Source: Nemertoderma westbladi (Eukaryota; Animalia; Xenacoelomorpha). From it: a DNA stretch of 50,830 nucleotides. The notes beneath the pieces were generated by a model that worked only from the letters and a program-made list of their open reading frames with translations, was not told the DNA's origin and did not search any database. Below, piece after piece: positions 15,998-46,238 of the stretch. The stretch spans positions 1 to 50,830 of the forward strand of contig JAUCBJ010007034.1 of assembly GCA_032718475.1 (NCBI GenBank), in the 5' to 3' direction. Both the position numbers and the translations under genes were made by a program. Each line of letters starts with the position of its first letter. The stretch's first letter is position 1.

Positions 15998-16283
15998 CGT
16001 GTATTATGGCAAGACCGTTGGTTGTTAATTAAATTCAATAGAACAAATATAATCCTATACAAATACGTGAATTTTACTACCTAAGTTAAATACAATACAA
16101 AGTGTTATAAATTTGAATAGTTAATGGAATTGTTGGGACCTATTTTGTTGAGGTGATAAATAAGTCTTCTCCAAAGTGATACAATAATAGTTATTTTGTT
16201 TCAATGCCTAATATTGAGATTGTACAATACCTTATTGTGGTTCAGTAAGCATTGTATTTTATGGTCCTGAGCAACATGCTGAT

Positions 16284-17520
16284 TGTAAAAGCTTCTGTGG
16301 GATATAACTGGCCCTTTTGCTTCGCAATCCAGTTTCCCCCCAGGCGCTGGAATACTCTAAAAGGCTCTCTAACTATATATATATTCCCCTCGCCCGCAAG
16401 GTACCGTTATAGGTGTTTTAACGGACATAAAAGTCATTCTTCTATATACGTGTTTTGGCGGACATGGTAAGGCAAAAAACCCTCAATGCACCAAATACCT
16501 TTACACAGCTTAGCCTTGATGATTCAGATTACGACATCTAACAGCTGGTTGCTGACATGGGAACAGCCATTGGACACATGGTTCTTTGTTTAGCTTAAGC
16601 CAATCAGAGCGATTTTTTCTGTCGATGTGGAGATATTCGGCCGATCATACTAGGAGTGTTCAGTCTTACTGTTTTTCTTGATACTGTTGTGTTGTTGCTA
16701 TCTAGGCCAGGAACACCGGCTCTAGAGTCAATTCGTTTCAGACTTTAGAAGAAACATTAGTAGGCTTAAGATTATAGAGCGTATAACTGTTATCGGTCCA
16801 TATCAGTACATTGTCATATCATATCTTAACCTACCGTCTTAATGGTTTGCTGTTGTTTGGTTGAATATTATTTGGAGAACATTTATAAAGAACCCAAATT
16901 TCCCAATTTTCTTGATACACTACAGGTTAGAGAGACGGGTTATATATAGCGATTGCGACTTATATTATTGTGGTTTGTAGTGAATTTAATGCTATTTGAT
17001 AAGCACTACATGAATCCGTTGCTGTTCTCTTTATATATGATAAAATTCATTGACGGTCGGCAAATTAGTGAGCAGTATTGTGTGTTACCGGTAGTGTGCA
17101 TGATTGTGACTGATAACTAAGCATTTCCTAAAGAATGCGCCTCATACGTGAATCATAAGCCTTACCGACTTACCGTTGTGATTAGTATAAGTCATATCTC
17201 TGTTTACCTAGATAGAGCGCCACGTCCAAAAGGAACTGTTAATATTTCCCGAAAGTGAATAATATTAGTCAGAAATTATTTATTAACGTTCAATCGAATA
17301 ATACAATACAGTAAGCTTACACTGCAATAATAATCTAAGCCCTCAGAATCCAGTCTCCCGGGTATATCCAGCGGGTGAATGGACGCGCACCAGGCTGGCT
17401 TCTGCTAATGTTGTGTTTATTGGTATTAAATATTTGTCAACTTCTAAAGTATATTTATAAACCAAAAGACATATAAATTTTGGCAGGTTAAACTGCTAAA
17501 GGTCTTCAAAAGCGCGTACA
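16284..17520 (+). repeat. 5' LTR of outer element
   Basis: TGTAAAA...GCGTACA; about 3 substitutions seen versus 43209-44445. Confidence 0.96.
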
Positions 17521-17531
17521 ATAACAGTTAT
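17521..17531 (+). promoter_or_regulatory. Non-tRNA primer-binding position of outer element (ATAACAGTTAT)
   Basis: Abuts the 5' LTR, lacks TGG, and is the exact reverse complement of LTR 16783-16793. Confidence 0.6.
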
Positions 17532-17566
17532 TGTCTTTATTTGCAGTAAGCAATAAAGTTGAAAGT

Positions 17567-18855: not shown

Positions 18856-21122
18856 TGTAAGGGTCCAGTAGTATACCGCTTACCAGATCCTAGTAACGAT
18901 GTATCTTACTATGAGACTCTAGTAATGTATACGGGCTTGTACAGTATCTGACAACAAATCCCAGTCCAGGATATCTAAACAAACAGATACAATACACAAA
19001 CGACTACTGGCGAGGAACAGAGCCTTGTATCTATTCTATGTACGTGAGCGGGTCTAATGCCTACGTACTAGACAGAAGGATACCTGTCCTCTAACCGGTG
19101 AGGCAGATGTACAGTTACAGTAACAGACCAAACTCACGGGAAAACAATCCCCGCGCAGCGAATCCTAACTATCACTGACACTCCTAAATACAGTAACTTG
19201 CCGCGGTGTGATTTATATGGTTTATATACGAGCTAGGTGGTTAACAGACCTAGTGTAACAACACTGACAGTCCTAAATCAGTCGAAAAGGGGTCGTGCCT
19301 AAATGTAACAATAACTGATCCCCCTGTACGAAATCAGTCTAAAGGGTCAGGCCTAAATGTAACAATAACTGCTGGATAGAAATCAACAGTTTAATAACGA
19401 AAGTGAAATACTCCTTATCGCCACAACTAAATCAGATCCTAATTTTACAAATACAGATAATTTCCACCTAAAGTAATGTATAGTGCGCTATAGCTAGTAG
19501 AACTTTAAGGGCAATATGTTTTAGGGCGTGTGTGTGTGGGTGTGTTACAAATAAAACAATTTCGTGTAATTCCTTTTACTAGGTTTTAGTGATTTTCTGA
19601 CTAAATGATACCGTGCGCTAGCTACTAAAATAAACTAGTCGCGTTTGTAGAACTTTATACTCACGAATGATGTCAAAGCTCTCTCCTTCCTATCCACAAC
19701 CCAATGGGCAACCACAGTGTTAGTAACTACACCCGTGATCGGCACTAATACCAGATTCTGGTTGTAAGATAAGAATAGGGGTTAATCGCTACCGTACGTT
19801 AGCTGATCTGGTATACTAATTTAATTCTAGAACTTTGTTGCTGCGGTAGTTAGCAGCAATACCTATCAGTACGTGGCAAGGCGCGGTAGGATATTAATAA
19901 AACCTCCCTAGGCCAAGCAGTGTGCCGGTAGCAGAAATGCTCCTTGCCTGATCAAATAGCTAACTCCAGACAGGGGGGGGGGGGGGGGGTACTAATGTAC
20001 GTTCTACAAAGCGAACCGGTACCAAACAGTCAGTGCTATGAATCACTAAATTATGGAACATATGATGTCCGTACCTAATATGTACTCGCGTACTGACGAA
20101 TGGCAATAGTTCGCACCTGTAGGAAGTACAGGTTAACCCAGGGATTCGTAGGACTTGACAAGGGGGGGTGTCTGGATATAATTATTTGATCCTAAATTTG
20201 CGGCGTCCAGTACGGTGTCACGCTTACCCTGATCTATAGGTCTTACGGCGGGCAAGGGCGTCGAACAAAGTCTTACCTTCTCACAAAGCGGGCGCTGCAT
20301 AGCAAGTGGAGTATTTCGAAGGGCAAAGGGGGTGCGCGGTCAATCCAATGTGGGCGCTAGCGTGTTGTGGACATCCCTTCCCTGCGTTGCTTACGGCCTA
20401 ACGGTCTAGGCTGCCATCTCCCTGATGTTCGGCTGTCCCGAAGTTGGACCAAAAGAAAACATGTCAGGAATTTGCAGTATATTTACAGTTTTACAAAAGG
20501 ATTTATCAAATAAAGTTTCAACAAGAAACCGAAATAAACTAATAACAATTTAGGAATTTGCAAGAGTAAGTGATAACGTAACGTGATATTAGGTGATAAC
20601 CGAAGGCAAACCGGCCTTTTTATACTAGAAATTGCACATGGAAACTAAACAGAATTTTCCACAGCTTCACAATTGAGCAATGAAGTGCTTCGTGCCCTAT
20701 GATTGGCCCAGCTCATCGTTCAACGCAGTCCGGCCCTTACACTAATCTGGGACATGGAATCCTAACAGAATTTTCCACTGCCTCACATTTGAGCAATAAG
20801 ATAATTTATGCCCTATGATTGGCCTGGCTCATCATTCGCTACGCTGTACGCTTCTCATTGGCCTACCAATTAGCACCACACGAAAATAAATGGCCCCAAA
20901 ATACAAATTTCCCGACTGGGATTCGAACTCGTAACCTATGTAATGTAACCAACGCCTTAACCATCTGACCACTACGCCACGAGAGTACCTAAGGGTTTTA
21001 TGTGTACAAATATGAATAGGCATATTACATTACTGTAACTCAATCAAAATACGTCGGATTTTCGAAAGTTTTTACGTTAAAGTTAAACTACAAATGCTAT
21101 CTTATAGTGAAATAATTCATCA
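18856..21122 (-). repeat. 3' LTR of inner element (2267 bp)
   Basis: Near-identical to 32697-34959: about 4 substitutions, a 1-nt indel and G17 versus G14. Confidence 0.97.
20911..20978 (-). other. tRNA-like A/B-box cassette in inner 3' LTR
   Basis: GTGGTCAGATGGTTAAGGC ... GAGTTCGAATCCC followed by TTTT; acceptor and T stems do not pair. Confidence 0.6.
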
Positions 21123-22910: not shown

Positions 22911-24926
22911 CTATTTACTAATATTGGGTGGAGATTTGTAGTCTCCCGTCTCGTTTCTAGTCTCTTCAAGGAGTACGAGACGTTGTACAGGCCTGTCTAC
23001 GGTACGTCCGTCGATAGTCCTTACAGTAACTGTCCTCACTACACCAGATGTAGGGTGCGTGGTCAAAATGACTCCAGTCAACCAAAACCGTCTTTTCAGA
23101 TTAGCTTCAGCCAATAAAACATGGTCACCACGTCTTAAACATCGGGTATTTAGATACCAAGAGGTTCTGGTCGAAATAGAGGGCAAATAATATTTCTGCC
23201 ATATTTCCCAGAATTTATTTGCAAGCAATTGAGTGATTTTCCAAGCCTTGTTGCCGTATCCGTCACTATCAACGGGTACCGAAATGGGCAACAATGTCGT
23301 CGGCGCCTGCATAAGCAGGTGCGCTGGTGTCAAGGCAAACTGTACGTCGTTATTGTCTGGGATCAAAGCGATCGGTCTGGTATTTAAGATTGCTTCGATT
23401 TCTATTAGTAACGTCGTTAGTTGGTCGTCTGTCAAGATGTGTTGCGTCGGTACGACTTTAGCCATAGCTGTCTTTATTGAGCCAATCAGCCTTTCCCAAA
23501 CGCCGTCTCTCCACGGACTGTCTGGAGTATTGAAAACCCAAACAATACGGTGAGGACGTAGTTCCTCGGAAATCTGGTTTTGGTCCAATTTTCTCAAAGC
23601 TCTGGTTATCTCGTTCCGTGCACCCACAAAGTTTGTCCCTTGGTCGCAGTATATGGATTTGACCAATCCACGTCTAGCGATAAATCGCCGTAAGGCTAGG
23701 ATAAAGGCATTGGTGGTCAAGTCTGTCACTCGCTCTATATGGACAGCTCTGCTGGCCATGCAAGTGAAGATCAATCCCCAACGTTTTACCTGTACCCTTC
23801 CGCGTTTCGCGATTATGGGTCCAAAACAGTCTATTCCTGTCTCAGTGAAAGGGGGTCTAAACGCCTGTAATCTCGCTAATGGTAGTTCACTCATTTCTTG
23901 GTGTCCTATCCTCGCGTGCACCTTCTTACAAATAATACAGTTCCGTGTTACTGAACTCAGTGCCTTACTAGGTCTAATCAGTACAAACCTCGAACGTAAG
24001 TATGATAGACAGTGGTGTCTACCTACGTGTTTGAGTTGTACATGTGCGTCCAGTATCATAGCGCGCTGTAACTCATGGTGTTGCGGTATGATGATAGGAT
24101 ACCTAAAGTCAAGTGCAAAGTCGATGTTTTGGAGTCTGGACTTGTGACAAAGTAAGCCCCGGTAAATAATCGGACTCCAACTCAAAATCGGTGAAGACTT
24201 AATCTGTTTACCTTGTTTGATCGCTGTGAACTCTCGTGCGAAATATCGCAATTGATAATGTCTAATGATACCAACTTCACAGTGGTCAATTTCCTTTAAG
24301 GTAAGTCTTCTAGGAAAGTCGCGTTTGCCTCTGGCATATTGTCTCAATCGTTTGAGCCATGCTAACTTGCGGCACGCGTCAGTCCATGATCTAGTTAGGT
24401 TCACTATCCTGTCAACGTAAGTGTTAGTGACGTCATCGGGTAAGGTGTAGTCGTAGTGTGGATACTTGTCTGGACTTGGTAGGCCCACGGGCCTTCCGGT
24501 AGGTTTGTCTGAGTCCCCAAGTACGTCAATCTCTACGGTCTTACCTTTGCCGTCCGCACCTAATATGTTGACTGGCAGTAATGGTTTCAACTCTACAGTG
24601 TCAGTGTGTTCCTGTGAGCTTGTAAGCTTCCTAACCTTAGTCACCACTTTACCTGTAGGTAAGTCAAGTACCTTCTTCGAGCGGAGTGTAATCCCTGTGG
24701 CCACACCTTTGTCGTCCAAAGAAGTCAAATTTGGTAAGTCTCTAAAAGTCCGCTCCAATGGGTCTTCTAATGGAGTGTCTAGTAGACAGTCTGGTGAAGC
24801 GTCTGGTGAACAGTCTGGTGAGACGTCTGGTGAGACATAGCGCGGAACATCCGGCGAAATGTCCTGTCGTCGGTCCCAAAGTCTGTCTAGTGTATCTTCC
24901 GTCAGAAAGTCTGGTTCAAAGTCTGG
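22911..24926 (-). CDS. Inner pol segment: linker and integrase
   Basis: HVQLKH..CIIC zinc finger, GIDCFGP, CDQGTNFVG, GVWERLIG, RPVQRL; the frame extends upstream of 24758 to a +1 frameshift near 24927. Confidence 0.93.
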   Translation of the reverse strand, partial: PDFEPDFLTEDTLDRLWDRRQDISPDVPRYVSPDVSPDCSPDASPDCLLDTPLEDPLERTFRDLPNLTSLDDKGVATGITLRSKKVLDLPTGKVVTKVRKLTSSQEHTDTVELKPLLPVNILGADGKGKTVEIDVLGDSDKPTGRPVGLPSPDKYPHYDYTLPDDVTNTYVDRIVNLTRSWTDACRKLAWLKRLRQYARGKRDFPRRLTLKEIDHCEVGIIRHYQLRYFAREFTAIKQGKQIKSSPILSWSPIIYRGLLCHKSRLQNIDFALDFRYPIIIPQHHELQRAMILDAHVQLKHVGRHHCLSYLRSRFVLIRPSKALSSVTRNCIICKKVHARIGHQEMSELPLARLQAFRPPFTETGIDCFGPIIAKRGRVQVKRWGLIFTCMASRAVHIERVTDLTTNAFILALRRFIARRGLVKSIYCDQGTNFVGARNEITRALRKLDQNQISEELRPHRIVWVFNTPDSPWRDGVWERLIGSIKTAMAKVVPTQHILTDDQLTTLLIEIEAILNTRPIALIPDNNDVQFALTPAHLLMQAPTTLLPISVPVDSDGYGNKAWKITQLLANKFWEIWQKYYLPSISTRTSWYLNTRCLRRGDHVLLAEANLKRRFWLTGVILTTHPTSGVVRTVTVRTIDGRTVDRPVQRLVLLEETRNETGDYKSPPNISK

Positions 24927-25150
24927 TAGAGACGTCCGGTAGACATTCTGTCGAGAGTTCCATCAAACAATCTGGCGAACAATCCGGAGAACAATCTGGT
25001 GTCTCTTCTGGTGAATAGTCTGGCGAGTAATCTGGTGAACAATCCGGCGAAACGTCTGGTGAAATCTTCTGCGGAACATCCGGCGAAGGATTCGTACAAG
25101 CGTCTGGTCGAGTGTCTGGCGAGACGTCTGGCGTAATGTCAGGTCTGGCG
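24760..25150. repeat. Degenerate 12-bp coding minisatellite (SPDx repeats) between RNase H and integrase
   Basis: TCTGGTGAA/TCCGGCGAA iterations translating as SPDV/SPDC/SPDY. Confidence 0.85.
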
Positions 25151-26735
25151 TCCAGGTCATCAGATTTCGTCCGTCCTTTTTTCCTTTTGACCTTGGCGTT
25201 GGCTTTCGCTTTAGACTTGACAACCTTGTCGAGTTTTATCTCGGCACCCTCTGGTATGGTGTTGGTTGTCGCGTCGAATAACGGTGGCCATTCGTCTGAT
25301 GGTCGCTGTAGGAAATCGGGTCCTCTAAACCAAAAGGATTTATTGTCCGGTTTACAAAAGTCAAGTGGTTGCATCCCCCGTGACGCGATGTCAGCTGGGT
25401 TCAGCTTCCCTGGACAGTGACGCCAATCTTGTTTGAGCGACCGGTCTAATATTTCAGCCCGTCTGTTGGCTACGAAAGTCTTGAACTCGAATGTTTCGTT
25501 GTTTATGTACCAAAGTACCAACGTCGCATCCGTCCAATATGTGACCTTCAAGTTAGCCTCCAGCTCGCGTTGAACTAGACTGACAATATCGGTGGATATC
25601 GTCCCGGCTTGCAGCTCCCCACGAGGTACAGTCATATACTTCAATGGCATTGTTCTAGCCCTTGAAGTAACGAGAGACACATCGTAGCTGTCCGATGTCA
25701 CTTGTCGTCTAAGGTATAAGGTAACCCCCAATCCATCCTTGCTAGCGTCACTAAAGCTGTGAAGCTCTAAATCGGCAGGAAAGGTGGTTTGCAAAGGAAA
25801 GTATACCCTCGGTATGGTATAGTCTTGTAGGAACGTCAGTTGGGCTTCCCAGTCCCTCCATCGCTCAGCTAACTTTTCTGGGATGGGATCGTCCCATTCC
25901 AGTCCGGCTTGCCAAATGCTGCGGAGTATGATCCTGGCATGTAGGATCACTGGACTAATGAAACACAATGGGTCATACAATCGACTCATGGTCGATAAGC
26001 AAGTCCTCTTAGTGAGAGGTCTAGTCTGGTCGTTGGACCTTACACGTACCCTAAAATTGTCGGTGTTAGGGTCCCAACTAAGTCCTAATACTTTGGTCGT
26101 CGGCAGAGGTTCTAAGTCTAAGTCCAAGTCACCTCCGCTACGATCCATCGGGTCAAATGAGTTCACCAGTTCGGGTTCGTTGGAAGCGAACTTCGTCAGG
26201 TGAAATCCGCCCTCAGCGAGACAATCCTGGAGTTGGTGTGCTACGGTTGTAGCGCGCTCCAAGGTGTCACAACTCTTGAGGCCGTCATCCACGTAGAAAT
26301 CTCGTTCCACGGTCCGAACTACTTCTGGGTCAAATTGGTCTCGTCTGTCCAATGCTGTCTGCTTCAATGCGTACATGGTGCAGTTGGGGCTGTCCCTGGC
26401 TCCAAATACTCTTACCTGCATTTGGTAAGTTTCTGGCAGAAGTTGTAAGTTTCCGTCCGGATACCAAAGAAACCTCAAACTGTCCCTGTCCCGCTCCAAA
26501 GCCTTAACCTGGTGAAACATGGCCTCTACGTCACAGGTGAAAGCCACTTTGCGTTGTCTAAAACGCATTAGGACTCCCATGAGGTAATTATTCATATTCG
26601 GCCCGTCCATCAGTTCGCTGTTCATAGACATCCCTTGGTAAAGCGCAGCGCAGTCATTGACTACACGCACCTTGCCAGGTTTGTCCGGGTGTCGAACAAA
26701 ATGATGTGGCAGGTAATATGTCTGGTCTGTGGTTA
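24916..26735 (-). CDS. Inner pol segment: reverse transcriptase and BEL-type RNase H
   Basis: YYLPHH and PGKVRVVNDC upstream of the listed start, DVEAMFHQV, FYVDD, HSFSDAS, YWTDAT, WRHCPGKLNPADIASRG. Confidence 0.95.
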
Positions 26736-27752
26736 CCTGGCGTATCCCTTTTGGAGATACGTCTGAAGTTGTGCATTGTATTGCATATGGGCCGTCTCGT
26801 CTCGCAACAATCGCTGCCTTATTGATTTGAGTCGCCTCAAAGCAAGCGGGTAATTGTTAACGAGCTTAGGTTGTCCATTGCGCCACAACATACCAACCTC
26901 ATAGTGGCCATTCGCGGTCTGGCGAATGGTATCTCTCATAATATTTAATGACCGTTTTTCCTGTTCTGACATAGCGGTTTCGTAACTACCGGGTTCTGCT
27001 GAGTCCTGTTCCAACCATTGTATGGTCCGTTCAGTCAGCAGTCGGTCAAGCGCTGCTTGCACTGCTCCATGGTCCTCGTCCACGTCTTCGTCCGCTGCGG
27101 TGGCTAGTGTCAATGTGTCTGGTAGGCTCGCAAGCCTTCCGGTGTCACTAGTCGGCGTCGAATTGTCGTGCGGCGGTTTGACAACCTCTTGATCTATCGG
27201 TAGGCTCGCAAGCCTTCCAAGATCAACGACCGGTGTCGAAGCCTGGTGGGTGGGGTCAATGACCTTCGGATTTTTCGGTAGGCTCGCAAGCCTTCCAAAA
27301 TCCTCGTTCATCGAGTCATCCATGGCAACAACCCTTTGGCCTTCAGTAGTCAATACAACCTGGTCTACTGCAAGTAGTTGTAAGTCAGAGGTCCGTATGG
27401 TCGTGTCCAGATCGGTTGCGTCAGTATCGGTGGCGTCTGCATTAGTGACGCAAGTCTGTCGTAGTGCCGTCCGTACAATTGGACCACGAGAGTGTGAAGG
27501 AGAATTATCTATCGTGTTAGTCAATAAACTACACGTACTCAAAACGTCGTCCTCCTGGTCACTTACCTCTAGTGAACGTATTGGTGCTCTAGTATACCAA
27601 CCTATGGGAGTTCTACATGCGTAGGGGTTGCCCGCTGTAATAACAGATGGGCGTGTCTCCCATACCTGATGTAAGTTAAACTGGTCTGTCCCAATTAACA
27701 TCGCAATGGAACGATAATTAACAGGACATTCCGGTATTCCAAGGTGTCGGAA
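26733..27752 (-). CDS. Inner pol segment: protease C-terminus and PR-RT linker
   Basis: In frame with gag after the TAA at 27753-27755 (FRHLGIP..MLIGTD, TPIGW, GHYEVGMLW); ends in a frameshift at GYAR; contains three 78-bp repeats. Confidence 0.88.
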   Translation of the reverse strand, partial: FRHLGIPECPVNYRSIAMLIGTDQFNLHQVWETRPSVITAGNPYACRTPIGWYTRAPIRSLEVSDQEDDVLSTCSLLTNTIDNSPSHSRGPIVRTALRQTCVTNADATDTDATDLDTTIRTSDLQLLAVDQVVLTTEGQRVVAMDDSMNEDFGRLASLPKNPKVIDPTHQASTPVVDLGRLASLPIDQEVVKPPHDNSTPTSDTGRLASLPDTLTLATAADEDVDEDHGAVQAALDRLLTERTIQWLEQDSAEPGSYETAMSEQEKRSLNIMRDTIRQTANGHYEVGMLWRNGQPKLVNNYPLALRRLKSIRQRLLRDETAHMQYNAQLQTYLQKGYAR

Positions 27753-30700
27753 TTACTTACGATCTTCCGGTGATTGCTCTGGCACAGGGCCGAGCAAGTT
27801 ACTAAAGTCCTTCGTAGCTGCAAAGGTCAAATTTCTTACCGGAAGTAATGAGCGCTCCTCCTTGCTGTGTTCCGCTTTGGAAAGAAGAGTGTCTAAGGTT
27901 AGTTTTACTCTTGTCACGGGGATCGCTCTCTTACCATGCATGCTGCTTACAGTATACTGAGCAGTCTTACCTTGACTCATGTCCGTAACTACGTCGGCTA
28001 CTTGTTCGTCGACATAACTATGCGATGACGCAGAGTCTAAGATGGCGTATATACGCTTGCTCCCTCGGGTTCCGGTAATCTTTATAGGAATCACGCTAAA
28101 CCCTTTCAATTGGTTCTGTGTGAGGAGCGTTATCGATGGCTGTTCCTCACCTGCATGCACGTAGAAAGTGTCGTCTTCCTCCTCGTCCTCGTCCGATGAT
28201 CCTGACTGATCCATACAGTCGGTATAAAAGGTACGGATCTCGCGCGGCGCACGCTCCTTATAAAGCGCGTCGCATCTAGCCGCTTTATCTGGATGCTCTC
28301 GTCGAAATTGTCTGGTCGGAGTATGACTGGTTGTGTGAAGCAACGCGTCATGGTTACGTCCACACAGAGAACATGTATCGTCGCTCGGGCAATCCTTCCG
28401 GACGTGTCCTGGCTTCATACATCTCCAACAGGAATCTAGAGATCGGATTTGGAGTCTCCTCTCCTCGATCCCTAACTCTTTAAAAGCGCGACATCCACGT
28501 AGTTTATGTCCGCTTTGGTTTCTGCCGTTCCGCTCGCAGTATGAGCATCCCACAAAGTCCGCCGGCAACTGTTGTCGTGGCTGCGTGGTGCCGATAGGCG
28601 TCAGAACTTTAGAAGTCTCAGTAGGGGTGGCGTAAGTAACGGCTTTCGCGTTCGTCGGAAATGGTTTAGTCCGATTCGGCGCAGAAACAGCTATCCCTTC
28701 CGCCGCGATATGGTGATCGGTATAGTTCGATCTAGTCTCGATCATGGCCTCCCGTGAAATAAGTTGATAGACATCGGTGAGTTTTAATAACCCTCCGGCC
28801 TCTTCGCGCTGGTACTCGATGCGTCGCCATTCTCTTCGTAGTCGATGGTGAAGTCGACCGATTATTCGAATGAGAACCGTCGGTGCGTTAGCGTACTCGA
28901 GTTGTCCAATGGACCGTAAAGTCCCTATAGCGTTCTTTATTTCGTCCGCGAGTCGTAAAAGGTCGATCGGTCTCGAAATGTTGCCTCCTCTGCAGAGGTC
29001 TTCAATAATGGATTTAGCCATGGCGACATTACCGCCGTAAATCGAATACAAACGCTCGTACGCCAACTCAAAGGCATCGGGAACACCAATAAAGGTTTCC
29101 GCTAATCGTTTCGGCTCACCAGACAGAACTTGGAGCAAGTAATTAAACTTCTCCGTCGAGGTGAAAGCACACTTAGCGATCTGGGACTCTACGTAGTCTA
29201 CCAGTGTGCGCCAATGTTTCGCGTTGCCAGAGAACTTCGGCGGTTGCTGTGCCGGTAATCCGTGTCTAGCCGCGAATTTCGCAATCTCGCTAACTAAGTC
29301 CAACTGTCCGCGTCCCTGTTCGGCGGCGTCGTCCAGTCGCTCCCTTCCGCGCGTTGTTCGTTGGTAGGAATTATTAACGGGATCTTCATCTCGATGTGTC
29401 GGAGTCCGTCTAGTCTCCTGTTCTCTCCTCGGTGGTCGATGTTGTCTAGGTTGTTCCAACTCCACGCTGGTTCGTGATCGATCCGACGGTTGCGCTTCGA
29501 GTCGCTCTTCGAGTTGAGCTAGTCGGTCCGTTACAGGTCGCATTATTTCGGCGAGTCTGTTGGTGCTGATCGCTTCCGCTGGTTGCAACGTGGGTTTCTG
29601 TTGGGGTGTTTCTCGTGGAGGATTATCGATATAGGGGTTCGTCGATCGTTCCTCCCGTTTGTAATCCGCTGCCGCTGCCGCTCCAGTACGGAATATTTCC
29701 CGTTCCGTCGACTCCGGGTCACTGGATGAATCGCTGTCGTCCGGATAAGGTGGTTGGCGGGTTCGCGTCCGGCGTATTATTCTTGGTCGAGTTCGTCGTG
29801 GTCTGGGATCTACGGCTCCTCGTTGTTCGGTAGGCTCGCAAGCCTTCCACGAAGTCGTAGGTCTCGTTAAACATTGGGTGAGAGGTCTAGTAAAAACATC
29901 TGAGTTAAGTTCTACTGTAGGTTTATAAATGACTGGGTTCGCGCAGCACGTCACAGGTTTAACTTGCAATGGTTTACTCACCTGTTTTACTGTCATAAAC
30001 GCAGGTTCGTCTCTCTCCACAAGTAAACTACGACTTACTGTAGGTGGACTAGTTATGTTACCTGCTAAAATTGGCGATGAAGTCGCCCTAGGTTGCGGTA
30101 TTTCCATCACAACAAACCTGCTACCTTGCGTCTGGCGCACAGGCGTTATTTCCTTAGGTTTCGTAACAAAGACCGGTTTTATCGGAGTCGTGGGTTTGAG
30201 CATTGGAATAACTTGGGGAAAACGTTTACAGTAATCCTCGACGAACTCCTCTCCTCGATCTATCGCTCCCACACTTCCTTCCTCGATTCGCTTCTGGATT
30301 CCGCGATATCGAGTCTCCATGCGATCCAGGGCAGACAAGTCGTGTCCAGTTCGAGACCTTATAGATCTATCTCTCGCGTCGAGTTCGAGGTCCGCTTGCG
30401 CGTTCGCTGCCTCGCGCGATCTACGATTCAGTTCGAACTGGAGCTGCATCTCTCTTTCGCGTCGATCTGCTTCCTGTTGTTGTGCCGCTAACTCCGCTTC
30501 CTGTATCGCTAAACGAGCGTTTATTTGTCGCGCCTCCAACTTGGCACGAGCGTCGGATGCTGCTTTCTTCCGTGCTAACTCAGCTGCGTTTACCGCCGCA
30601 ACTCGTGCTAACTCGTCGGCTGCCGCCGCTGCCTGTCGTGCTAGCTCGTCAGCTGCTGCCGCCGCGGCCGCTTCTCGCGCTAAGTCCTCCTCCAGTCTCC

Positions 30701-31694
30701 GCATCTCTGATGCTTCGAACTCAGCCTGTGCTTGAAGTTTCGCAAGTTTCGCTACATCCTCTCTGCGCTGTTTTTCTCCTTCGATGGCGATCTGTGCCAT
30801 CTGTAGTTGCGCTTCTTCCTCGGCGACTTGTTGTCGGCGTGCGACCTCCTGTTGTTGTCGAATAATTACAGATGCTGTTCTACTAACGTTGCCAACGTCG
30901 CCAACGTCGCTCCGTACGCTCACGAACGATCTATCCAGTGGTGGATGTTGGTAGGCTCGCGAGCCTTCCGTAGTGAGAACTTCCGTCGTCCCTCGCGGTT
31001 CGACTTCCGGTTCGTCGATCGGTACGCCGCATCTACGAAGAAAATTGGTCAGCGTTTCCAACCTTCCGTCCAGGCAGTAGAGTTCTTCTTCCTCTTCGGG
31101 TTGTAACAACGCGTCCGAAACTGACTCACCTAGCAGTTGGTCGAACTGCTCCTGTTGAGCCAATCTTATTACCGACTTAAACTGGATAAGGCTTTCTCTC
31201 GCACTTACCAATTTATCTACTATCTTTACCTGAGTAAAGTTGTCGCCACGCAACTCTGCAAGTTCGTGCAAACCTTTAAGTTTATCTACGGAGGCATGTA
31301 CCCTACTTTCTATCCTTACCTTTAAGGTGTAGAACTCGTATCTCGACATCGGGGCGGTTAACTCGCGTAAAACGCGAAAACCTTCTCCGAGGTTCCGAGT
31401 AATCTGGGCCATGTGTCCTCCTATACTTCTAATAACGTTCTCCTGGCTTCCAGTCGAACTTACCATGTCCGGTTCCCGTGATCTAGTCTGCGGGACGGTA
31501 AGGAAATCTTCAATTCTGCCGTCGCCACGCGTTGCGGCTTCCGGTATTTCCGTTCGGGGTACCGGCGACGCAAGCGGTGTGACATCGGTGGAATCTCGGG
31601 TTCTCCTTCTCGGTTCGTCTACTGTCGATCTGTCCGGGTCGCACGAGTCATAGTCGGTAGGTGGGTATCTCGTCGAATGGGGTGTGTCACTCAT
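27753..31694 (-). CDS. Inner Gag and aspartic protease N-terminus
   Basis: Ala/Glu coiled coil, PPKFSGNAKHW (DUF1759-like), BEL triple zinc motif (CSYC..H..C, CWRCMKPGHVRKDC, CSLCGRNHDALLH), ILDSASSHSY. Confidence 0.94.
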   Translation of the reverse strand: MSDTPHSTRYPPTDYDSCDPDRSTVDEPRRRTRDSTDVTPLASPVPRTEIPEAATRGDGRIEDFLTVPQTRSREPDMVSSTGSQENVIRSIGGHMAQITRNLGEGFRVLRELTAPMSRYEFYTLKVRIESRVHASVDKLKGLHELAELRGDNFTQVKIVDKLVSARESLIQFKSVIRLAQQEQFDQLLGESVSDALLQPEEEEELYCLDGRLETLTNFLRRCGVPIDEPEVEPRGTTEVLTTEGSRAYQHPPLDRSFVSVRSDVGDVGNVSRTASVIIRQQQEVARRQQVAEEEAQLQMAQIAIEGEKQRREDVAKLAKLQAQAEFEASEMRRLEEDLAREAAAAAAADELARQAAAAADELARVAAVNAAELARKKAASDARAKLEARQINARLAIQEAELAAQQQEADRREREMQLQFELNRRSREAANAQADLELDARDRSIRSRTGHDLSALDRMETRYRGIQKRIEEGSVGAIDRGEEFVEDYCKRFPQVIPMLKPTTPIKPVFVTKPKEITPVRQTQGSRFVVMEIPQPRATSSPILAGNITSPPTVSRSLLVERDEPAFMTVKQVSKPLQVKPVTCCANPVIYKPTVELNSDVFTRPLTQCLTRPTTSWKACEPTEQRGAVDPRPRRTRPRIIRRTRTRQPPYPDDSDSSSDPESTEREIFRTGAAAAADYKREERSTNPYIDNPPRETPQQKPTLQPAEAISTNRLAEIMRPVTDRLAQLEERLEAQPSDRSRTSVELEQPRQHRPPRREQETRRTPTHRDEDPVNNSYQRTTRGRERLDDAAEQGRGQLDLVSEIAKFAARHGLPAQQPPKFSGNAKHWRTLVDYVESQIAKCAFTSTEKFNYLLQVLSGEPKRLAETFIGVPDAFELAYERLYSIYGGNVAMAKSIIEDLCRGGNISRPIDLLRLADEIKNAIGTLRSIGQLEYANAPTVLIRIIGRLHHRLRREWRRIEYQREEAGGLLKLTDVYQLISREAMIETRSNYTDHHIAAEGIAVSAPNRTKPFPTNAKAVTYATPTETSKVLTPIGTTQPRQQLPADFVGCSYCERNGRNQSGHKLRGCRAFKELGIEERRLQIRSLDSCWRCMKPGHVRKDCPSDDTCSLCGRNHDALLHTTSHTPTRQFRREHPDKAARCDALYKERAPREIRTFYTDCMDQSGSSDEDEEEDDTFYVHAGEEQPSITLLTQNQLKGFSVIPIKITGTRGSKRIYAILDSASSHSYVDEQVADVVTDMSQGKTAQYTVSSMHGKRAIPVTRVKLTLDTLLSKAEHSKEERSLLPVRNLTFAATKDFSNLLGPVPEQSPEDRK

Positions 31695-32685
31695 GTCTTA
31701 TTATATACGTCAAGTACGGATAATAAAATGTCAAAGTGTCTGAATGTTGAAGTGTCAAACTTACCTAACCGGTACAAATAAATCAACAAGTCAGAATGTC
31801 GAAATGTCAAAATGTCGAAATGTACAAATGTCAAACTTACCTTGATATATATATATATCATATATATACCCTAACCGGTACAAATAAACTAACAAGGTAT
31901 ATAATAAAATAAGTAGTAATCTAGCCTACCGGCTAAATTTGTACGAATAAGTGAGATAACGGTATACGTTAACAAAATGTAGATCAACAAGTATAAACAA
32001 TAGGCCTAACAGCAACGTCTAACGGGAAAATAAGTACCAACAACACTACTAATAGACAGTGAAACCCACAAATTTTGAGTACTACTGTGCTTTCTTAAGT
32101 TTGAACGACGCGAGTCGTAAAACTTACGTTCCTTTGATCTTCCAGTCGTACAAATTCCCAAATACAAACCGGACGTGGGTCTTTCCGTTTTTCGGCGGCG
32201 CGGACGAATTTATTGTCTCCCAAACTTTGCGAAAAGCGGTCTAATCCTCGAAGCGGTCCAGAAATGAGTCCTTGAGTCCTGAAAAGGTCGAAGGTGAGAG
32301 TTTTACTTCTACGCTTACGAAAATCTTCCTAGGTACCGATACAAATTGGTCTTTAAACCCTATGTACCTTTTCAAGTACCGAAAAGTAACACCGCACACA
32401 CACGGCGTAAAACAAAGTGCTACAAACTAACTGTTAGCTAGTCAAAGATTAAATACGAAAGTACTAGCTACCCTAAAAGCCTACTGAAGCAGGGGACGTT
32501 CTAAATTACTAAATTTACTAACCTTAGTTTTTAAATATCTCCTACTTACAATAGCTAACAAATATTTATCTATATCTCACTTTAAATGCGCACGCACTTT
32601 CGGTCGAGATATTTAATAAATACTTCCTACTTCCAATAGCTAGCAGATCTAAACTATACTACAGTACTATACACTAATTTATATA

Positions 32686-32696
32686 GTACTTCCTAC
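32686..32696 (-). promoter_or_regulatory. Non-tRNA primer-binding position of inner element (GTAGGAAGTAC)
   Basis: Abuts the 5' LTR, lacks TGG, and is the exact complement of transcript-strand GTACTTCCTAC at 33956-33966. Confidence 0.62.
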
Positions 32697-34453
32697 TGTA
32701 AGGGTCCAGTAGTATACCGCTTACCAGATCCTAGTAACGATGTATCTTACTATGAGACTCTAGTAATGTATACGGGCTTGTACAGTATCTGACAACAAAT
32801 CCCAGTCCAGGATATCTAAACAAACAGATACAATACACAAACGACTACTGGCGAGGAACAGAGCCTTGTATCTATTCTATGTACGTGAGCGGGTCTAATG
32901 CCTACGTACTAGACAGAAGGATACCTGTCCTCTAACCGGTGAGGCAGATGTACAGTTACAGTAACAGACCAAACTCACGGGAAAACAATCCCCGCGCAGC
33001 GAATCCTAACTATCACTGACAGTCCTAAATACAGTAACTTGCCGCGGTGTGATTTATATGGTTTATATACGAGCTAGGTGGTTAACAGACCTAGTGTAAC
33101 AACACTGACAGTCCTAAATCAGTCGAAAAGGGGTCGTGCCTAAATGTAACAATAACTGATCCCCCTGTACGAAATCAGTCTAAAGGGTCAGGCCTAAATG
33201 TAACAATAACTGCTGGATAGAAATCAACAGTTTAATAACGAAAGTGAAATACTCCTTTCGCCACAACTAAATCAGATCCTAATTTTACAAATACAGATAA
33301 TTTCCACCTAAAGTAATGTATAGTGCGCTATAGCTAGTAGAACTTTAAGGGCAATATGTTTTAGGGCGTGTGTGTGTGGGTGTGTTACAAATAAAACAAT
33401 TTCGTGTAATTCCTTTTACTAGGTTTTAGTGATTTTCTGACTAAATGATACCGTGCGCTAGCTACTAAAATAAACTAGTCGCGTTTGTAGAACTTTATAC
33501 TCACGAATGATGTCAAAGCTCTCTCCTTCCTATCCACAACCCAATGGGCAACCACAGTGTTAGTAACTACACCCGTGATCGGCACTAATACCAGATTCTG
33601 GTTGTAAGATAAGAATAGGGGTTAATCGCTACCGTACGTTAGCTGATCTGGTATACTAATTTAATTCTAGAACTTTGTTGCTGCGGTAGTTAGCAGCAAT
33701 ACCTATCAGTACGTGGCAAGGTGCGGTAGGATATTAATAAAACCTCCCTAGGCCAAGCAGTGTGCCGGTAGCAGAAATGCTCCTTGCCTGATCAAATAGC
33801 TAACTCCAGACAGGGGGGGGGGGGGGTACTAATGTACGTTCTACAAAGCGAACCGGTACCAAACAGTCAGTGCTATGAATCACTAAATTATGGAACATAT
33901 GCTGTCCGTACCTAATATGTACTCGCGTACTGACGAATGGCAATAGTTCGCACCTGTAGGAAGTACAGGTTAACCCAGGGATTCGTAGGACTTGACAAGG
34001 GGGGGTGTCTGGATATAATTATTTGATCCTAAATTTGCGGCGTCCAGTACGGTGTCACGCTTACCCTGATCTATAGGTCTTACGGCGGGCAAGGGCGTCG
34101 AACAAAGTCTTACCTTCTCACAAAGCGGGCGCTGCATAGCAAGTGGAGTATTTCGAAGGGCAAAGGGGGTGCGCGGTCAATCCAATGTGGGCGCTAGCGT
34201 GTTGTGGACATCCCTTCCCTGCGTTGCTTACGGCCTAACGGTCTAGGCTGCCATCTCCCTGATGTTTGGCTGTCCCGAAGTTGGACCAAAAGAAAACATG
34301 TCAGGAATTTGCAGTATATTTACAGTTTTACAAAAGGATTTATCAAATAAAGTTTCAACAAGAAACCGAAATAAACTAATAACAATTTAGGAATTTGCAA
34401 GAGTAAGTGATAACGTAACGTGATATTAGGTGATAACCGAAGGCAAACCGGCC

Positions 34454-34705
34454 TTTTTATACTAGAAATTGCACATGGAAACTAAACAGAATTTTCCACA
34501 GCTTCACAATTGAGCAATGAAGTGCTTCGTGCCCTATGATTGGCCCAGCTCATCGTTCAACGCAGTCCGGCCCTTACACTAATCTGGGACATGGAATCCT
34601 AACAGAATTTTCCACTGCCTCACATTTGAGCAATAAGATAATTTATGCCCTATGATTGGCCTGGCTCATCATTCGCTACGCTGTACGCTTCTCATTGGCC
34701 TACCA
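34454..34705 (-). promoter_or_regulatory. Putative Pol II promoter in inner U3
   Basis: TATAAAAA at 34461-34454; three GGCCAAT boxes upstream; two ~116-bp direct repeats containing TTGAGCAAT and TTTTCCA. Confidence 0.6.
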
Positions 34706-34747
34706 ATTAGCACCACACGAAAATAAATGGCCCCAAAATACAAATTT

Positions 34748-34815
34748 CCCGACTGGGATTCGAACTCGTAACCTATGTAATGTAACCAACGCCTTAACCA
34801 TCTGACCACTACGCC
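34748..34815 (-). other. tRNA-like A/B-box cassette in inner 5' LTR
   Basis: Copy of 20911-20978. Confidence 0.6.
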
Positions 34816-35514
34816 ACGAGAGTACCTAAGGGTTTTATGTGTACAAATATGAATAGGCATATTACATTACTGTAACTCAATCAAAATACGTCGGATTTTC
34901 GAAAGTTTTTACGTTAAAGTTAAACTACAAATGCTATCTTATAGTGAAATAATTCATCAATACGGCTATAGGTCGTCAGGCGGTGGTATTTTCCTATCTG
35001 GACAGTGCAATATATTTACTACTACTTATTATTTTCAAATACCGTAGTACCCTGTCCGTTGTAATAACCAGAATTCTAACCCTTTGTTAGGCTGGTTTGT
35101 AGACTTCCTGTAAAATTACCCTAAAAATTCGTACGTAATATTTTGTTGTGTTTAATTAGAGATTTAATCTCACCCATATCGTAAGTAATTTGTAGTATTA
35201 AGTAACTTAGGTAAATTAGAATTATCTGTTTTAGTGTCCAATAAATAGCACTTCACTGAGAGCGCCCAGCTTCTGTGTAGTGACCCCCCAGAAATAATAA
35301 CATTTTATTTCGAATATTGACAAAACCCATTTTAAACGAGTATATAAATATTATAAATCAACTCAACCGATTTATAAATAGTAGGCCTGCCATACAACAA
35401 CTAGGTCTCAATATCAGTTGGACTACTGCTTAAATAACGGTAATAAAGTAAGTTAAAGTACGGTAACCAAGTAACCCTAAAATATTCAGAAATTCAATTA
35501 TTCTAAAATAATTG

Positions 35515-35765: not shown

Positions 35766-35897
35766 AATATATTATATATATCACGCTACACTGAGTAGCA
35801 GTATCGGTAATTAATTGTTAGGCTAACAGTGATACTGAATTACTAGACTTACTTTAACTGTATTTATAGCCGTAGGCATTCAACTGTGTAAACAAAC

Positions 35898-37040
35898 ATG
35901 TCAGACGCAACCCAATCACTGTCAGATAGTCTCTTAGAAAGTGTTAGAATGAGTATTAGACTTAGACAGCGTATTAAAAGGATCTGTGACCAAGATCAAA
36001 GTATAGAACATCCCAGATCCAAGTCTAAGTCACCTACTATTGTAAAAAAGGCCATACCTACAGTAGTAGTGTCAGACCCTAGGCTAGTAGAACAACGTAG
36101 GTCTATCATCGGCACTCGGGCCCAAGTCAAGCGGGATCAAGAAGCAGCTGTCAAACCGCAGCAACATCCTAGCCAAGAACCTAGTTCTCAGCGGCCCGAT
36201 AGCTCCAGTAGTTCGGATACTGCTGAGCGGACACCCGAAAGCGGAGCGAAGATGGCGGATACGGTTTATGATGAGCGGCCAACCTATGAAGAATCAGTCG
36301 ACGCCACTTCTTCTCAAGTGGAAAGCGAAGTGGAAAGCGAATTAACAGCAGCAGAGAAGCCGCGAACTAGAGACGCCATTGACATCTATCTGTCAGACTA
36401 TCAGCGATTCATAGGAGACGAAGAGTTGAGGAGACGACTGTCTGGACTTCGCCCTAATAGTGAAGGAACCAAGCTTGTGTTGGACGCAATCGATGCGGAA
36501 ATGTTAGCTGCGAACCAAGCTAAATTTGATGAACGACTCCGCCTCGTTAGAGTCCAAGAAGAACAAATAAAGAAAAAACAGATAGAGGACCGAAAGGCAG
36601 CAGCAGTAGCAGCGGCAATGGCAGAAGTAGAAGCAGAAAGAAAGGCAGCGGCGGCAGAAGTAGAAGCAGAAAGAAAGGCAGCGGAAGTAGAAGCAAAAAG
36701 AAAGGCAGCGGTAGCAGAAGCAGAAAGAAAGGCGGCAGCGGCAATGGCAAAGGCAGTGGCAGAAGCAGAACGGAGAGCGTCTGAGGAGACTACCCAACTG
36801 GAGTTGGAAAATCTGCAAGAGACGCAAGACTACATAAATAAACAGCTAACTGCTAGTCGAATGCAGATGATGAGACGATCTACTCCAAAACGCCAGGGAT
36901 ACACATCATCGGAGGAAAGCAAAACCACCGATCCTGAAGGCGGAGGAAATAGATCTCGTCTAAGCAGGCGTAGAAAAACATCTCACCGTCATAAACTGCC
37001 TGATTTGCCCCCAGCTGTCAGCAGACTAGCACAGACTTAG
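35898..37040 (+). CDS. Outer Gag N-terminal part (coiled coil), frameshifted relative to the rest
   Basis: 380-aa ORF with AEVEAERKAA repeats; the -1 frame is open from ~37004 into ORF 37142. Confidence 0.8.
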   Translation: MSDATQSLSDSLLESVRMSIRLRQRIKRICDQDQSIEHPRSKSKSPTIVKKAIPTVVVSDPRLVEQRRSIIGTRAQVKRDQEAAVKPQQHPSQEPSSQRPDSSSSSDTAERTPESGAKMADTVYDERPTYEESVDATSSQVESEVESELTAAEKPRTRDAIDIYLSDYQRFIGDEELRRRLSGLRPNSEGTKLVLDAIDAEMLAANQAKFDERLRLVRVQEEQIKKKQIEDRKAAAVAAAMAEVEAERKAAAAEVEAERKAAEVEAKRKAAVAEAERKAAAAMAKAVAEAERRASEETTQLELENLQETQDYINKQLTASRMQMMRRSTPKRQGYTSSEESKTTDPEGGGNRSRLSRRRKTSHRHKLPDLPPAVSRLAQT

Positions 37041-37141
37041 GTAGTACAGAACCCACAGACCAAATTATTAAGGTCAAAAGACTCCCTACCATAGTTGATG
37101 AGCCTGAAATAATTAGGCCTGTCGTTCCCAAAGTCACTCCT

Positions 37142-39169
37142 GTGCTAGAGACCCCTGTACTTCCAGAGCTTAACTCTAAGTTCCCTTTACACAGTACTAC
37201 ACTGCCTGTACCCGGTAGAACAGTCCATGAGAATATCCCTGTCCTGGAAGCTGAGAGAGAAATCAAAGATTTGTCTCCCGTCGTCCCGCGTCAGCCCGCT
37301 ACAATGTTGGCGACTCCCGCTTCGGCGGTTGAGTGGGTAGAGGAGGGACGGCGGGGGATGAATCTCCTGCTCGGACAGATGCAGGAGACTGTCCACCAGC
37401 TTAAGGGAACAGTAAGGGAAGGTAGGGCAGAATTGCAAGAAGTGCAGCAAAGTATCGCACTGGAAGGCGACAAATTAGTCAATATACAAAAGGGCATACC
37501 AATACCCCCTGTAACATTGTGTCAACCTGTTAGGTCTGAAGTATTACATGCGCAAGGTGTGGAGCCTACACGCATCTATACTGCTAGTGAAGTAGAAACT
37601 CCTATAGCAAACCCTATTAAGGGTGATTATAGACCTGTTGTTAATGATGTTCCCTATAGACCTGATAATGATCCGAGAAATTTATATACCGATAATTCGA
37701 TATTAAATAACACGATGGCCCAAGAAAGCTTTACGCGTCAGATGGCTAGAACAGAAGCCCGCCAAGCGGTCAAAGTGGGAGAGATCGTTAAATTCAATGG
37801 AGATGAGATGAAATGGCTACATTTCAATGAATATTACAAAGATAGCATACAAAACTCTGTACTATCTAACGGAGAGAAACTTAGGTTCCTCATCAAGTGC
37901 TTGGAAGGACCTCCCAGGTTAATGGCGTTAAAGTTTATTGGACATCCAGAAGGATTAAGACAAGTATGGGATACATTAAACATCAGGTATGGTAACAAGG
38001 ATAACATAGCTAAGTATTTGTATGCAAAATTAGTAGCCCCCCGACACTTCCTTAGTAGCGGGATTATAGAGTTTTCCGATGAGATTCAAGAGATCTGTAG
38101 ACAATTGGACTGGTTAGGTAAGTCTCATGAATATCAGAGTTCCATGGTTATTGGAGCCGTAGTCTCTACTTTACCAAAGGGTGGAGTATGTACACGCTGG
38201 GACAAGAAAGTGTTATATATGAATGAGCAGCAACGACGAAGCCCTACCATGGCTGATCTCATGTCCTTCTTAGATAGTGAAGTAAAATTACAACTCATAA
38301 AGCAGTCCAGAGAGAAAACATCGGAAAATAAGGTAAGTGAGAAACCCGTTTCTAGGAGAAGGATAATACCAGTGTGTTATACTGATGACGGCGAAAGCCA
38401 AGCTTCTCAAGAAGAGGACAGCGGGAAAGACACAGCAAAATTTTACTATGACAACAAGACCTATAAAGACGTAAGTAAATATAAGTCTCGAACCAACGAT
38501 AGGAGAGAACAGGTAACAACAACTCCTCCCACGTCTCCTAAGAGAATTCACGGAAGAAAGCCCGAAGAAAGAACGAGAGTGCATAACGTTACCCAAGGTA
38601 AAGTGAGTAACATCAAACCAAAATGTGCGCTGTGCGACGGGCCCCACCGTTTGAGTGCGTGTGCTGAATTTCTAAAGAAATCCCTTGTAGACAGACGTAC
38701 AGTCCTGTGGAATAAGCGGTTATGCTATAATTGCCTCAGATCAGGACACCAACGGCGAACCTGTTACTCCGACGTAAAGTGTGCAAAGTGTGGCGCGAAA
38801 CATCACATCTTGTTACACAGTGAGTTCGAACGAGACAACCCGAGTCAGGTAAGTGAGCCCGAACTACATGTCCAATTCAGTGATGTAAATGACACTGATC
38901 AAGAATCTGAGATGGAAGGATTCTATACGGACGAATTCTCCGACGCCAACGAATCCTGTTACCTAATAAATACCGCAGTGTATCGAGCACTTACGCATAA
39001 AAAGGACACCGACAATGAGTTCCCCCCAACTACCTTTGACAGACAACCATCTTGGAAAGCTCCAACTTCCAACTTAGGAATCAGAGAATTTCCTGTAGTG
39101 CAGGTAAGAGTTCATGGTCCTAACAAAAGTTACATAGTGAACGCCCTCCTTGACTCCGGCAGCACATGA
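37142..39169 (+). CDS. Outer Gag core, zinc knuckles and protease start
   Basis: IVKFNGDEMKW, CALCDGPHRLSAC, CYNCLRSGHQRRTC, CAKCGAKHHILLH, ALLDSGST then an in-frame TGA. Confidence 0.92.
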   Translation: MLETPVLPELNSKFPLHSTTLPVPGRTVHENIPVLEAEREIKDLSPVVPRQPATMLATPASAVEWVEEGRRGMNLLLGQMQETVHQLKGTVREGRAELQEVQQSIALEGDKLVNIQKGIPIPPVTLCQPVRSEVLHAQGVEPTRIYTASEVETPIANPIKGDYRPVVNDVPYRPDNDPRNLYTDNSILNNTMAQESFTRQMARTEARQAVKVGEIVKFNGDEMKWLHFNEYYKDSIQNSVLSNGEKLRFLIKCLEGPPRLMALKFIGHPEGLRQVWDTLNIRYGNKDNIAKYLYAKLVAPRHFLSSGIIEFSDEIQEICRQLDWLGKSHEYQSSMVIGAVVSTLPKGGVCTRWDKKVLYMNEQQRRSPTMADLMSFLDSEVKLQLIKQSREKTSENKVSEKPVSRRRIIPVCYTDDGESQASQEEDSGKDTAKFYYDNKTYKDVSKYKSRTNDRREQVTTTPPTSPKRIHGRKPEERTRVHNVTQGKVSNIKPKCALCDGPHRLSACAEFLKKSLVDRRTVLWNKRLCYNCLRSGHQRRTCYSDVKCAKCGAKHHILLHSEFERDNPSQVSEPELHVQFSDVNDTDQESEMEGFYTDEFSDANESCYLINTAVYRALTHKKDTDNEFPPTTFDRQPSWKAPTSNLGIREFPVVQVRVHGPNKSYIVNALLDSGST

Positions 39170-40057
39170 ACATTCATCGATCAAGAACTAGCCGAAGATA
39201 TATTTGCTGGACAACCCAAATTCCGGACTAAATTGAATATGTCAGGAATTATGCAGGTTTGGAAATCTACCCTAACGGCAGATTACTATGTAGGTGTGTT
39301 GTCCACCCCCCAGGATAAATTAGGAGCACAAGGTGTAAGGTCGGTAAAAATGGTGGCTATAAAGAACTTTGCTACTACTCAGGCAGACCTTTATAATTGG
39401 GACGAGGATGAGAGCATCCAACATCTTAAGATACCTCGATTCCAGACAGATTATCCTGGAGTGCAAATACTCATCGGCCAAAACGCGCATGAGGCACTCG
39501 AGACATTGGAGAAACGGCCTGCTCAACCGCAGCCACTACAAACCTATGCGGTAAGAACTAGAGTAGGTTGGTACTTCACTGACCCTTCCCGTAGAACTCT
39601 CAAAGAGAGATTACCTCAACAACAGGTATACCAAGTAAAGGAATGGGAAGTGGAGAGCAGTGATGTGGACGATCCAACTGAGGGAACACCATACTCCTCA
39701 GATAATGACGATATTAACTCCAATGTAGATCAATGGAGACATTGCCTTGGGACGATTAATCCATCCGACATCGCTTCCAGAGGAGCAACTCCTCAAGAAC
39801 TGATAGATACTCCAGGCTGGTTAGGTGGATCCGACTTCTTAAGTAAAGAAGAAGAAGAATGGCCTCCTCATCTTACCACAGCGAAGATTAGACAGGCCAA
39901 GGGAGCGGAGAAAGTAACACAACAACTCAATCGCCCAGCTGTTCGTTTATGTTTACTGGAAAGAGACCGAAAACTGTCCGGAAACTATGGAAGGCAAGAT
40001 ACTCTTCCTACGACCACTTCCCTAATCCGACAAATATCTAGGGACTCCATAACGTAA
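39170..40057 (+). pseudogene. Outer pol remnant: protease C-half fused in frame to the RNase H C-terminal motif; RT and integrase absent
   Basis: TFID..QILIG..TRVGW followed directly by QWRHCLGTINPSDIASRG..WLGGSDFL..EEEWP, then a stop. Confidence 0.88.
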
Positions 40058-43194: not shown

Positions 43195-43208
43195 TTTTCT
43201 GGGAGCGG
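43195..43208 (+). promoter_or_regulatory. PPT-position sequence of outer element (TTTTCTGGGAGCGG)
   Basis: Directly precedes the TG of the 3' LTR. Confidence 0.8.
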
Positions 43209-45911: not shown

Positions 45912-46197
45912 TGTTATATCCCAATGTCATAATCCTAAAAACACTAGAGCTATAACATGGCTCGCCCCATATATATATATATATATAGGCCTATGCCTGG
46001 TGATGGAGTACGGTATTAATTAGGCCTATTAGCGCTATAGACAGCGCGGTGTCTGACATCATGATACTGTGATATACTGGTATATTATTACGATACTAAT
46101 AATACGGACATATTACATATTATTATGAATATATGATATTATGTTTTATATTATATCTGACCGCCTAGTTCATCTACCCGCGGTCCAAGACATAACA
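45912..46197 (+). repeat. Putative 5' LTR of Gypsy element
   Basis: 6-bp terminal inverted repeat and TATA-rich centre, followed directly by a TGG PBS; left boundary unconfirmed without the 3' LTR. Confidence 0.55.
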
Positions 46198-46207
46198 TGG
46201 CGCAGTG
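46198..46207 (+). promoter_or_regulatory. Canonical tRNA primer-binding site (TGGCGCAGTG, probably tRNA-Ser type)
   Basis: Starts with TGG immediately after the LTR-terminal CA. Confidence 0.65.
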
Positions 46208-46238
46208 ATTGATTGAACCTCGATAAACAGATAAAACC

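Follow-up and report, generated by a model that had tools for sequence, protein, structure and literature searches.

The locus described here raises the question of how reverse transcription is primed in a retrotransposon whose 5' LTR is followed directly by a stretch that has no TGG and is complementary to the LTR itself. The window, i.e. the whole 50,830-nucleotide stretch of Nemertoderma westbladi DNA that was analysed, holds an outer BEL/Pao element (16284-44445, plus strand; about 12 kb without its nested insert), which is bounded by two TG..CA LTRs of 1237 bp each (16284..17520 and 43209..44445; 99.76% identity) and flanked on both sides by the target duplication CTGAT (16279-16283 and 44446-44450). 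The end of the LTR is fixed because it is the point where the two copies cease matching. The primer-binding site (PBS) position abutting the CA of this LTR without a spacer, ATAACAGTTAT (17521..17531, plus strand), is of non-tRNA type and is the exact reverse complement of ATAACTGTTAT at 16783..16793 (plus strand) in the same LTR; the match stops at 11 nt, and a second copy of the LTR 11-mer lies in the 3' LTR at 43708-43718. The preliminary description had reported this pairing and the missing TGG, and both were confirmed; TGG is absent from the first 40 nt following the LTR of either BEL/Pao element in the window. We consider it probable that the 11 nt at 17521-17531 are the site for an RNA from the element's own LTR, which would replace a host tRNA and have the LTR 11-mer as its predicted 3' end.

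The second BEL/Pao element, of 16 kb, is nested in the first (18856-34959, minus strand), and its PBS position (32686..32696, minus strand), likewise of non-tRNA type, is complementary over exactly 11 nt to 33956..33966 (minus strand) in its LTR. This is a different 11-mer from that of the outer element and it is non-palindromic. Blastn similarity between the outer and inner LTRs is limited to one 11-nt match (E 0.97), and the internal DNA of the two shows no meaningful blastn similarity, which bears out the earlier statement that two families with unrelated LTRs share the pairing and not its letters. A match of this kind arose for the outer element at a rate of 2.9e-3 among Markov LTRs (58 of 20000) and of 0.9e-3 among the 11-mers of the window (72 of 84044), and for the inner one in 16 of 20000 and 84 of 84044, respectively. 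The chance per element is thus 0.8e-3 to 2.9e-3 under the Markov and empirical nulls; a figure of about 1e-3 had been proposed before, and our recomputation places it at 1e-3 to 3e-3. Among the 1325 post-LTR 11-mers of the outer element an exact LTR complement is found only at offsets 0 and 209-211, and among the 987 of the inner element at offset 0 alone. The neighbouring Gypsy element, proposed as an internal control, behaves as such: it carries RT/RH/IN domains, and its LTR-like piece (46068..46215, plus strand) has a 130-bp TG..CA part whose CA is followed by the TGG-type PBS TGGCGCAG at 46198, with a longest self-complement of 4 nt. The pairing is a real feature and, at the level of sequence, strongly bears the signature of priming that does not depend on tRNA.

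The assignment of both elements to BEL/Pao rests on structure and domains. Both have TG..CA LTRs, 5-bp target duplications and a polypurine tract, which in the outer element is TGGGAGCGG (43200..43208, plus strand), preceding the 3' LTR. The inner element has LTRs of about 2263 bp that are 99.6% identical (5' LTR of 2263 bp, 32697..34959; 3' LTR, 18856..21122, preceded by ATGGAGCGG; both minus strand) and the target duplication ATACG. Its gag-pol (22911..31697, minus strand) runs through four frames with DUF1759, RT, Peptidase_A17 (Pao RNase H), H2C2 integrase and DUF5641, in the order PR-RT-RH-IN. Its RT has named relatives (42-45%) in sea anemone, bivalves, echinoderms, a hemichordate, amphioxus and a fish, and its top RT matches all carry PF05380. 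Between its RNase H and integrase, 12-nt repeats (24754-25087, minus strand) encode Ser/Pro/Asp-rich stretches. Words resembling tRNA A and B boxes were seen by eye in both inner LTRs (about 20905-20985 and 34738-34818, minus strand); ARAGORN returned no tRNA gene in the whole window and Rfam no match in 16200-21200.

In the outer element a gag (DUF1759), a protease-like part and a short remnant of the RNase H end occupy three frames (35892..40057, plus strand), and its membership of BEL/Pao follows from this gag and from short pol remnants that in most pieces are 26-39% identical to the inner element. RT core and integrase are absent, and the outer element is therefore non-autonomous. It has an extra 3' open reading frame of 332 aa (42132-43130, plus strand) with two Cys/His knuckle-like motifs, accompanied by a 138-aa frame at 41666-42082; the 332-aa product gave no Pfam match and no homologue among 1087 candidates. 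A second GGGAGCGG word at 40997-41005 resembles the purine tract of the element and could be a central polypurine tract, and an AT-rich TG..CA piece with AATAAA at 40076-40377, having a purine-rich word before it and a TGG word 8 nt after it, may be what is left of a further LTR element. Just past the PBS lie three 38-nt tandem repeats (17584-17711), the leader contains a 288-nt duplication (17894-18410), and a 260-bp inverted repeat, 96.9% identical, flanks the whole element (15432-15691 and 45512-45771).

Other copies of the outer family indicate which part of the LTR is kept. Six sequencing runs, none of them recorded as RNA, contain the outer stretch or part of it, and the contigs aligned to 16690-16890 numbered 653 in run X1, 228 in X3, 13 in X5 and 0 in X4, the last of which gave 154 contigs in another alignment. 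Among the rows listed for X1, X3 and X5 (653, 228 and 13 contigs) there is no substitution or indel at 16771-16794, and substitutions and indels cluster among the outer-family contigs at 16795-16812. One 305-nt contig of run X5 matches 16735-16794 only; judged by this contig and the variant pattern, the 60-nt block 16735..16794 (plus strand), which ends one base past the 11-mer, is what divergent copies retain. The block likely represents the 5' part of a primer RNA, or its core promoter. In each of the two otherwise unrelated LTRs a YYCAGAC word, spotted post hoc, precedes the 11-mer by 44-45 nt (16738-16743 and 34006-34012) and may be described as initiator-like; its use as a splice acceptor is doubtful, as a common G>T variant at 16741 destroys the AG.

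Relatives were collected with an alignment of the inner RT-RNase H and 40 of 120 listed homologues, which yielded 22 loci from genome contigs and 78 from metagenome contigs (from the best 80 of at least 533 confirmed); no relatives were found in viral contigs. The contigs that carry the 22 loci L001-L022 are all assigned to MAGs of bacteria or archaea and most likely represent animal host DNA that was binned with these. In the window pair the complement is an intact 11-mer in the LTR, as had been described; that form does not extend to most relatives, where a predicted intron in the LTR interrupts the complement. Partial complements are found there directly 3' of a pyrimidine tract and AG, and the missing bases directly 5' of an upstream GT donor, so that, once the GT-AG intron is taken out in silico, the LTR is exactly complementary over 11-15 nt to the sequence that lies 0-4 nt past its end. 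Splicing of these LTR introns is predicted from the GT-AG motifs. In the sister loci L004 and L005, three base changes at the homologous exon end are matched by changes in the PBS. The contiguous form of the window pair also occurs in L026, L042 and L050: L042 has a split-type sister clade, L065, and in L050 one LTR carries an acceptor whereas its partner contains the 11-mer already joined, a difference that may reflect loss of the intron or a chimeric assembly. Inspection by eye added split 11-mers in L048 and L065, the contiguous one in L042 and a 10/11 match in L036, and gave no complement in L030 and L092. None of the 16 loci from the LTR-pair search starts with TGG past the shared LTR end; apparent TGG sites in L042, L064 and L027 were set aside, as each of these three has a self-complement elsewhere, L066 also shows an apparent TGG site, and a match of L062 in an earlier scan was lost in the junction scan described below.

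The pairing was compared with controls in several ways. When all good splice sites were allowed, with thresholds set after the pattern had been seen, a self match of at least 11 nt was present in 12 of 15 elements (13 loci and the two window elements), against 0 of 210 cross pairs; 8 of the 12 are split by a GT-AG LTR intron and 4 are contiguous. L009, L073 and L092 were left out owing to unsure LTR boundaries, and the three misses are L008 (11 nt, acceptor below threshold), L010 (10/11 by eye) and L017 (12 nt further on). A blind test restricted to the top-scoring donor and acceptor gave 12-15 nt in 4 of 14 loci, and at least 10 nt in 0 of 182 cross pairs. A junction scan that needs no LTR pairs, also with thresholds set after the fact, was positive in 18 of 81 loci, and eight controls that used the wrong orientation or displaced junctions each gave 0-2 of 81. 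Among the 63 misses there are many contigs that break off within the LTR, and a further 19 loci with too little upstream DNA fell outside the scan. A table of 28 elements was picked by hand, with the window pair and 26 of the loci, the duplicates L041 and L091 and the 10/11 cases being excluded. It contains 26 distinct PBS 11-mers, the match is exactly 11 nt in 18, and the introns measure 75-697 nt. The PBS begins with GT or AT in 25 of the 28, both window elements included, and one base later in the other 3; in this adjusted register the predicted primer ends in AC or AT in all 28, with C as the next base in 17, a pattern that is suggestive of an RNase H cut. The expectation of the preliminary description that BEL/Pao elements keep the pairing and change its letters was thus borne out, but the trait is not confined to elements with a GGAGCGG tract, for which the check had been proposed, and spans a wide BEL/Pao radiation. 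As judged from these comparisons, self-complementarity is a trait of the clade of related BEL/Pao elements.

A FastTree phylogeny built from the RT-RNase H of 119 sequences, with short unknown rows removed and the root set at the midpoint, places split-type loci on both sides of the root and the inner window element on a long branch nested among split-type loci, and the contiguous L026, L042 and L050 are scattered across it; support along the backbone is often low. Both window LTRs lack AATAAA, and both lack a splice junction at the 11-mer, so that it is the tree and the AC/AT end that tie the window pair to the spliced relatives. A splice-made complement was sought in both window LTRs and none longer than 10 nt was found, the candidates rejected being a 10-nt one with a poor donor in the outer and a 9-nt one in the inner LTR. 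As the contiguous loci are scattered and L050 is possibly chimeric, loss of the intron in the two window families is something that we infer. On balance we somewhat favour the view that a large animal BEL/Pao radiation dropped tRNA priming, that in it the host spliceosome builds the primer from an LTR exon junction, and that the window families, with their giant LTRs, are derived and lost the intron.

The mechanism that we propose would begin with an LTR transcript carrying the 11-mer, which would anneal to the PBS. A cut just 3' of the 11-mer, which would follow AC or AT and mostly precede a C and would probably be made by the element's own RNase H by analogy with Tf1, would then provide the 3'-OH for minus-strand DNA. 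In the general LTR cycle the primer is copied during plus-strand synthesis, and such copying would rewrite the PBS in each cycle and thereby hold the pair matched as its letters change. Where relatives carry the intron, the primer would be assembled by splicing, and in the window families, where the intron was likely lost, no splicing would be needed. An inherited LTR intron requires an intron-retaining template RNA, and a separate spliced LTR RNA would therefore be the simplest primer. The primer would probably have a 5' extension and may be a short LTR RNA that works in trans. For RT and integrase the outer copy would depend on an autonomous relative. Folding of LTR plus leader, which the preliminary description had proposed, does not favour the cis helix: its probability over the whole leader is at most 0.03 in both elements, and local hairpins are predicted to cover both sites in part. 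The predicted duplex energies are -10.1 kcal/mol (weak) for the outer and -15.9 kcal/mol for the inner pairing. Given the poor cis folding, chaperoning by Gag or action in trans would be needed.

The closest parallel is with the Tf1/sushi group, which is self-priming and has no tRNA site (in the available parts of PMC7175516 and PMC4600332). In Tf1 the RNA's initial 11 bases pair with the PBS and are removed by an RNase H cut (PMC7175516), and this primer, the 5' end of the RNA, is held by a required 'pretzel' of three duplexes, as described in the available part of bioRxiv 10.1101/2022.12.06.519325. Tf1 and Tf2 of Schizosaccharomyces pombe, Tj1 and Tf1/sushi thus resemble the window pair in their 11-nt LTR/PBS self-complement and the lack of a tRNA site. 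They are, however, Ty3/gypsy chromoviruses, whereas the window elements have BEL/Pao Pfam domains, and removal of an intron is needed in the BEL/Pao relatives, whereas the available parts of the Tf1 accounts contain no such step.

A strict Tf1 mode, in which transcription would start at 16783 and the 11-mer would be the 5' end of the genomic RNA looping back in cis, is a less likely possibility. The 11-nt length and the absence of a spacer are as in Tf1, the kept block, made up of the 11-mer and 48 nt upstream of it, matches a core promoter in size, and both 11-mers begin at a pyrimidine|purine step. However, the flanking duplexes described for the Tf1 pretzel were not found (the flanking 20-mers rank 24 and 34 in the outer and 21 and 20 in the inner element among 42 controls, close to the control median or below it), the improbable cis helix would have to close a loop of 740-1270 nt, and a TATA box about 30 nt upstream is absent. 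In the relatives the complement straddles the exon junction, and TATA-like boxes seen by eye in L050, L054 and L098 stand about 120-140 nt before it; the initiator-like word lying upstream in both window LTRs, although noted post hoc, also speaks against a start at 16783.

It is less likely still that the pairing forms a structure in the RNA that serves packaging, dimerisation or translation, with priming by a tRNA fragment, a hairpin at the LTR end or the like. The palindromic character of the outer site had been raised as a caveat, and it is real and more extensive than claimed: the last ACA of the LTR, the PBS and a following TGT together make an inverted repeat of 17 nt with a single base at its centre (17518-17534), which resembles the palindromic site of GalEa elements (PMC5445492, in its available part), and priming by a half-tRNA, which needs no TGG, is known in Copia elements (PMC6317226, likewise). 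But the inner PBS is non-palindromic, the pairing begins 0-4 nt from the LTR end in the scored elements, where the 3' end of a primer must sit, and 26 different sequences in 28 elements fit poorly with a tRNA fragment. A chance match or a degenerate direct repeat is largely refuted and appears very improbable. It could draw on the AT-rich, near-palindromic nature of the outer 11-mer, which in direct orientation differs from the PBS at one central base, and on the second exact complement, of 13 nt, at offsets 209-211, but it is contradicted by the non-palindromic inner case, by conservation of the 11-mer among copies and by the clade statistics. Priming by an RNA from the element's own LTR accordingly remains our preferred reading.

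In a nematode BEL element, Cer7, a self-encoded tRNA-like primer has reportedly been described. The ICTV describes Belpaoviridae as primed by tRNA, through a PBS of 18 nt that fits tRNA-Arg or tRNA-Gly; it puts their LTRs at 0.2-1.2 kb and their genomes at 4.2-10 kb and regards replication in the family as poorly understood (PMC8742986). The window elements agree with this family in being metazoan LTR elements with Gag (DUF1759), PR, RT, Pao RNase H, integrase and a short polypurine tract, but differ in their LTRs of 1.24 and 2.26 kb, their sizes of 12 and 16 kb and the lack of a tRNA site; the 18-nt complement of a host tRNA 3' end is missing, and their place in BEL/Pao stands by RT and domains. 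Self-priming has been predicted from LTR/PBS complementarity for Tcn1 (Gypsy) and TAR/Houba/Osr-1 (Copia) in the available part of PMC6317226, and repeated origin of self-priming is therefore known from other superfamilies; these elements belong to plant lineages, not BEL/Pao, and the parts of their accounts that were available contain no splice-built primer. The Conserved Hairpin Site of the fungal GalEa Copia elements is similar to the outer element in having no tRNA PBS and a palindrome that includes the last base of the LTR, but its partner lies downstream, and the authors of PMC5445492 detected no LTR complement, whereas in the outer element the partner is in the LTR. In the main text of the BEL/Pao surveys PMC3118150 and PMC6238403, as far as available, the words primer, PBS, tRNA and intron are absent; in the corresponding portions of the Sinbad paper (PMC554778) primer refers to PCR primers, and those of PMC8220671, PMC3601003 and PMC13524379 hold nothing bearing on BEL/Pao priming. 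Our search, which covered literature outside subscription papers, Repbase reports and supplements, gave no report of self-priming or of a splice-built primer in BEL/Pao.

If a wide clade of BEL/Pao elements primes with its own RNA, self-priming reaches a third LTR superfamily, and if the primer is indeed made by splicing, the first step of reverse transcription would be tied to host RNA processing. The junction rule offers a call of LTR ends and primer sites from sequence alone where annotation tools report no PBS. The occurrence of contiguous and split forms side by side makes the order of events testable.
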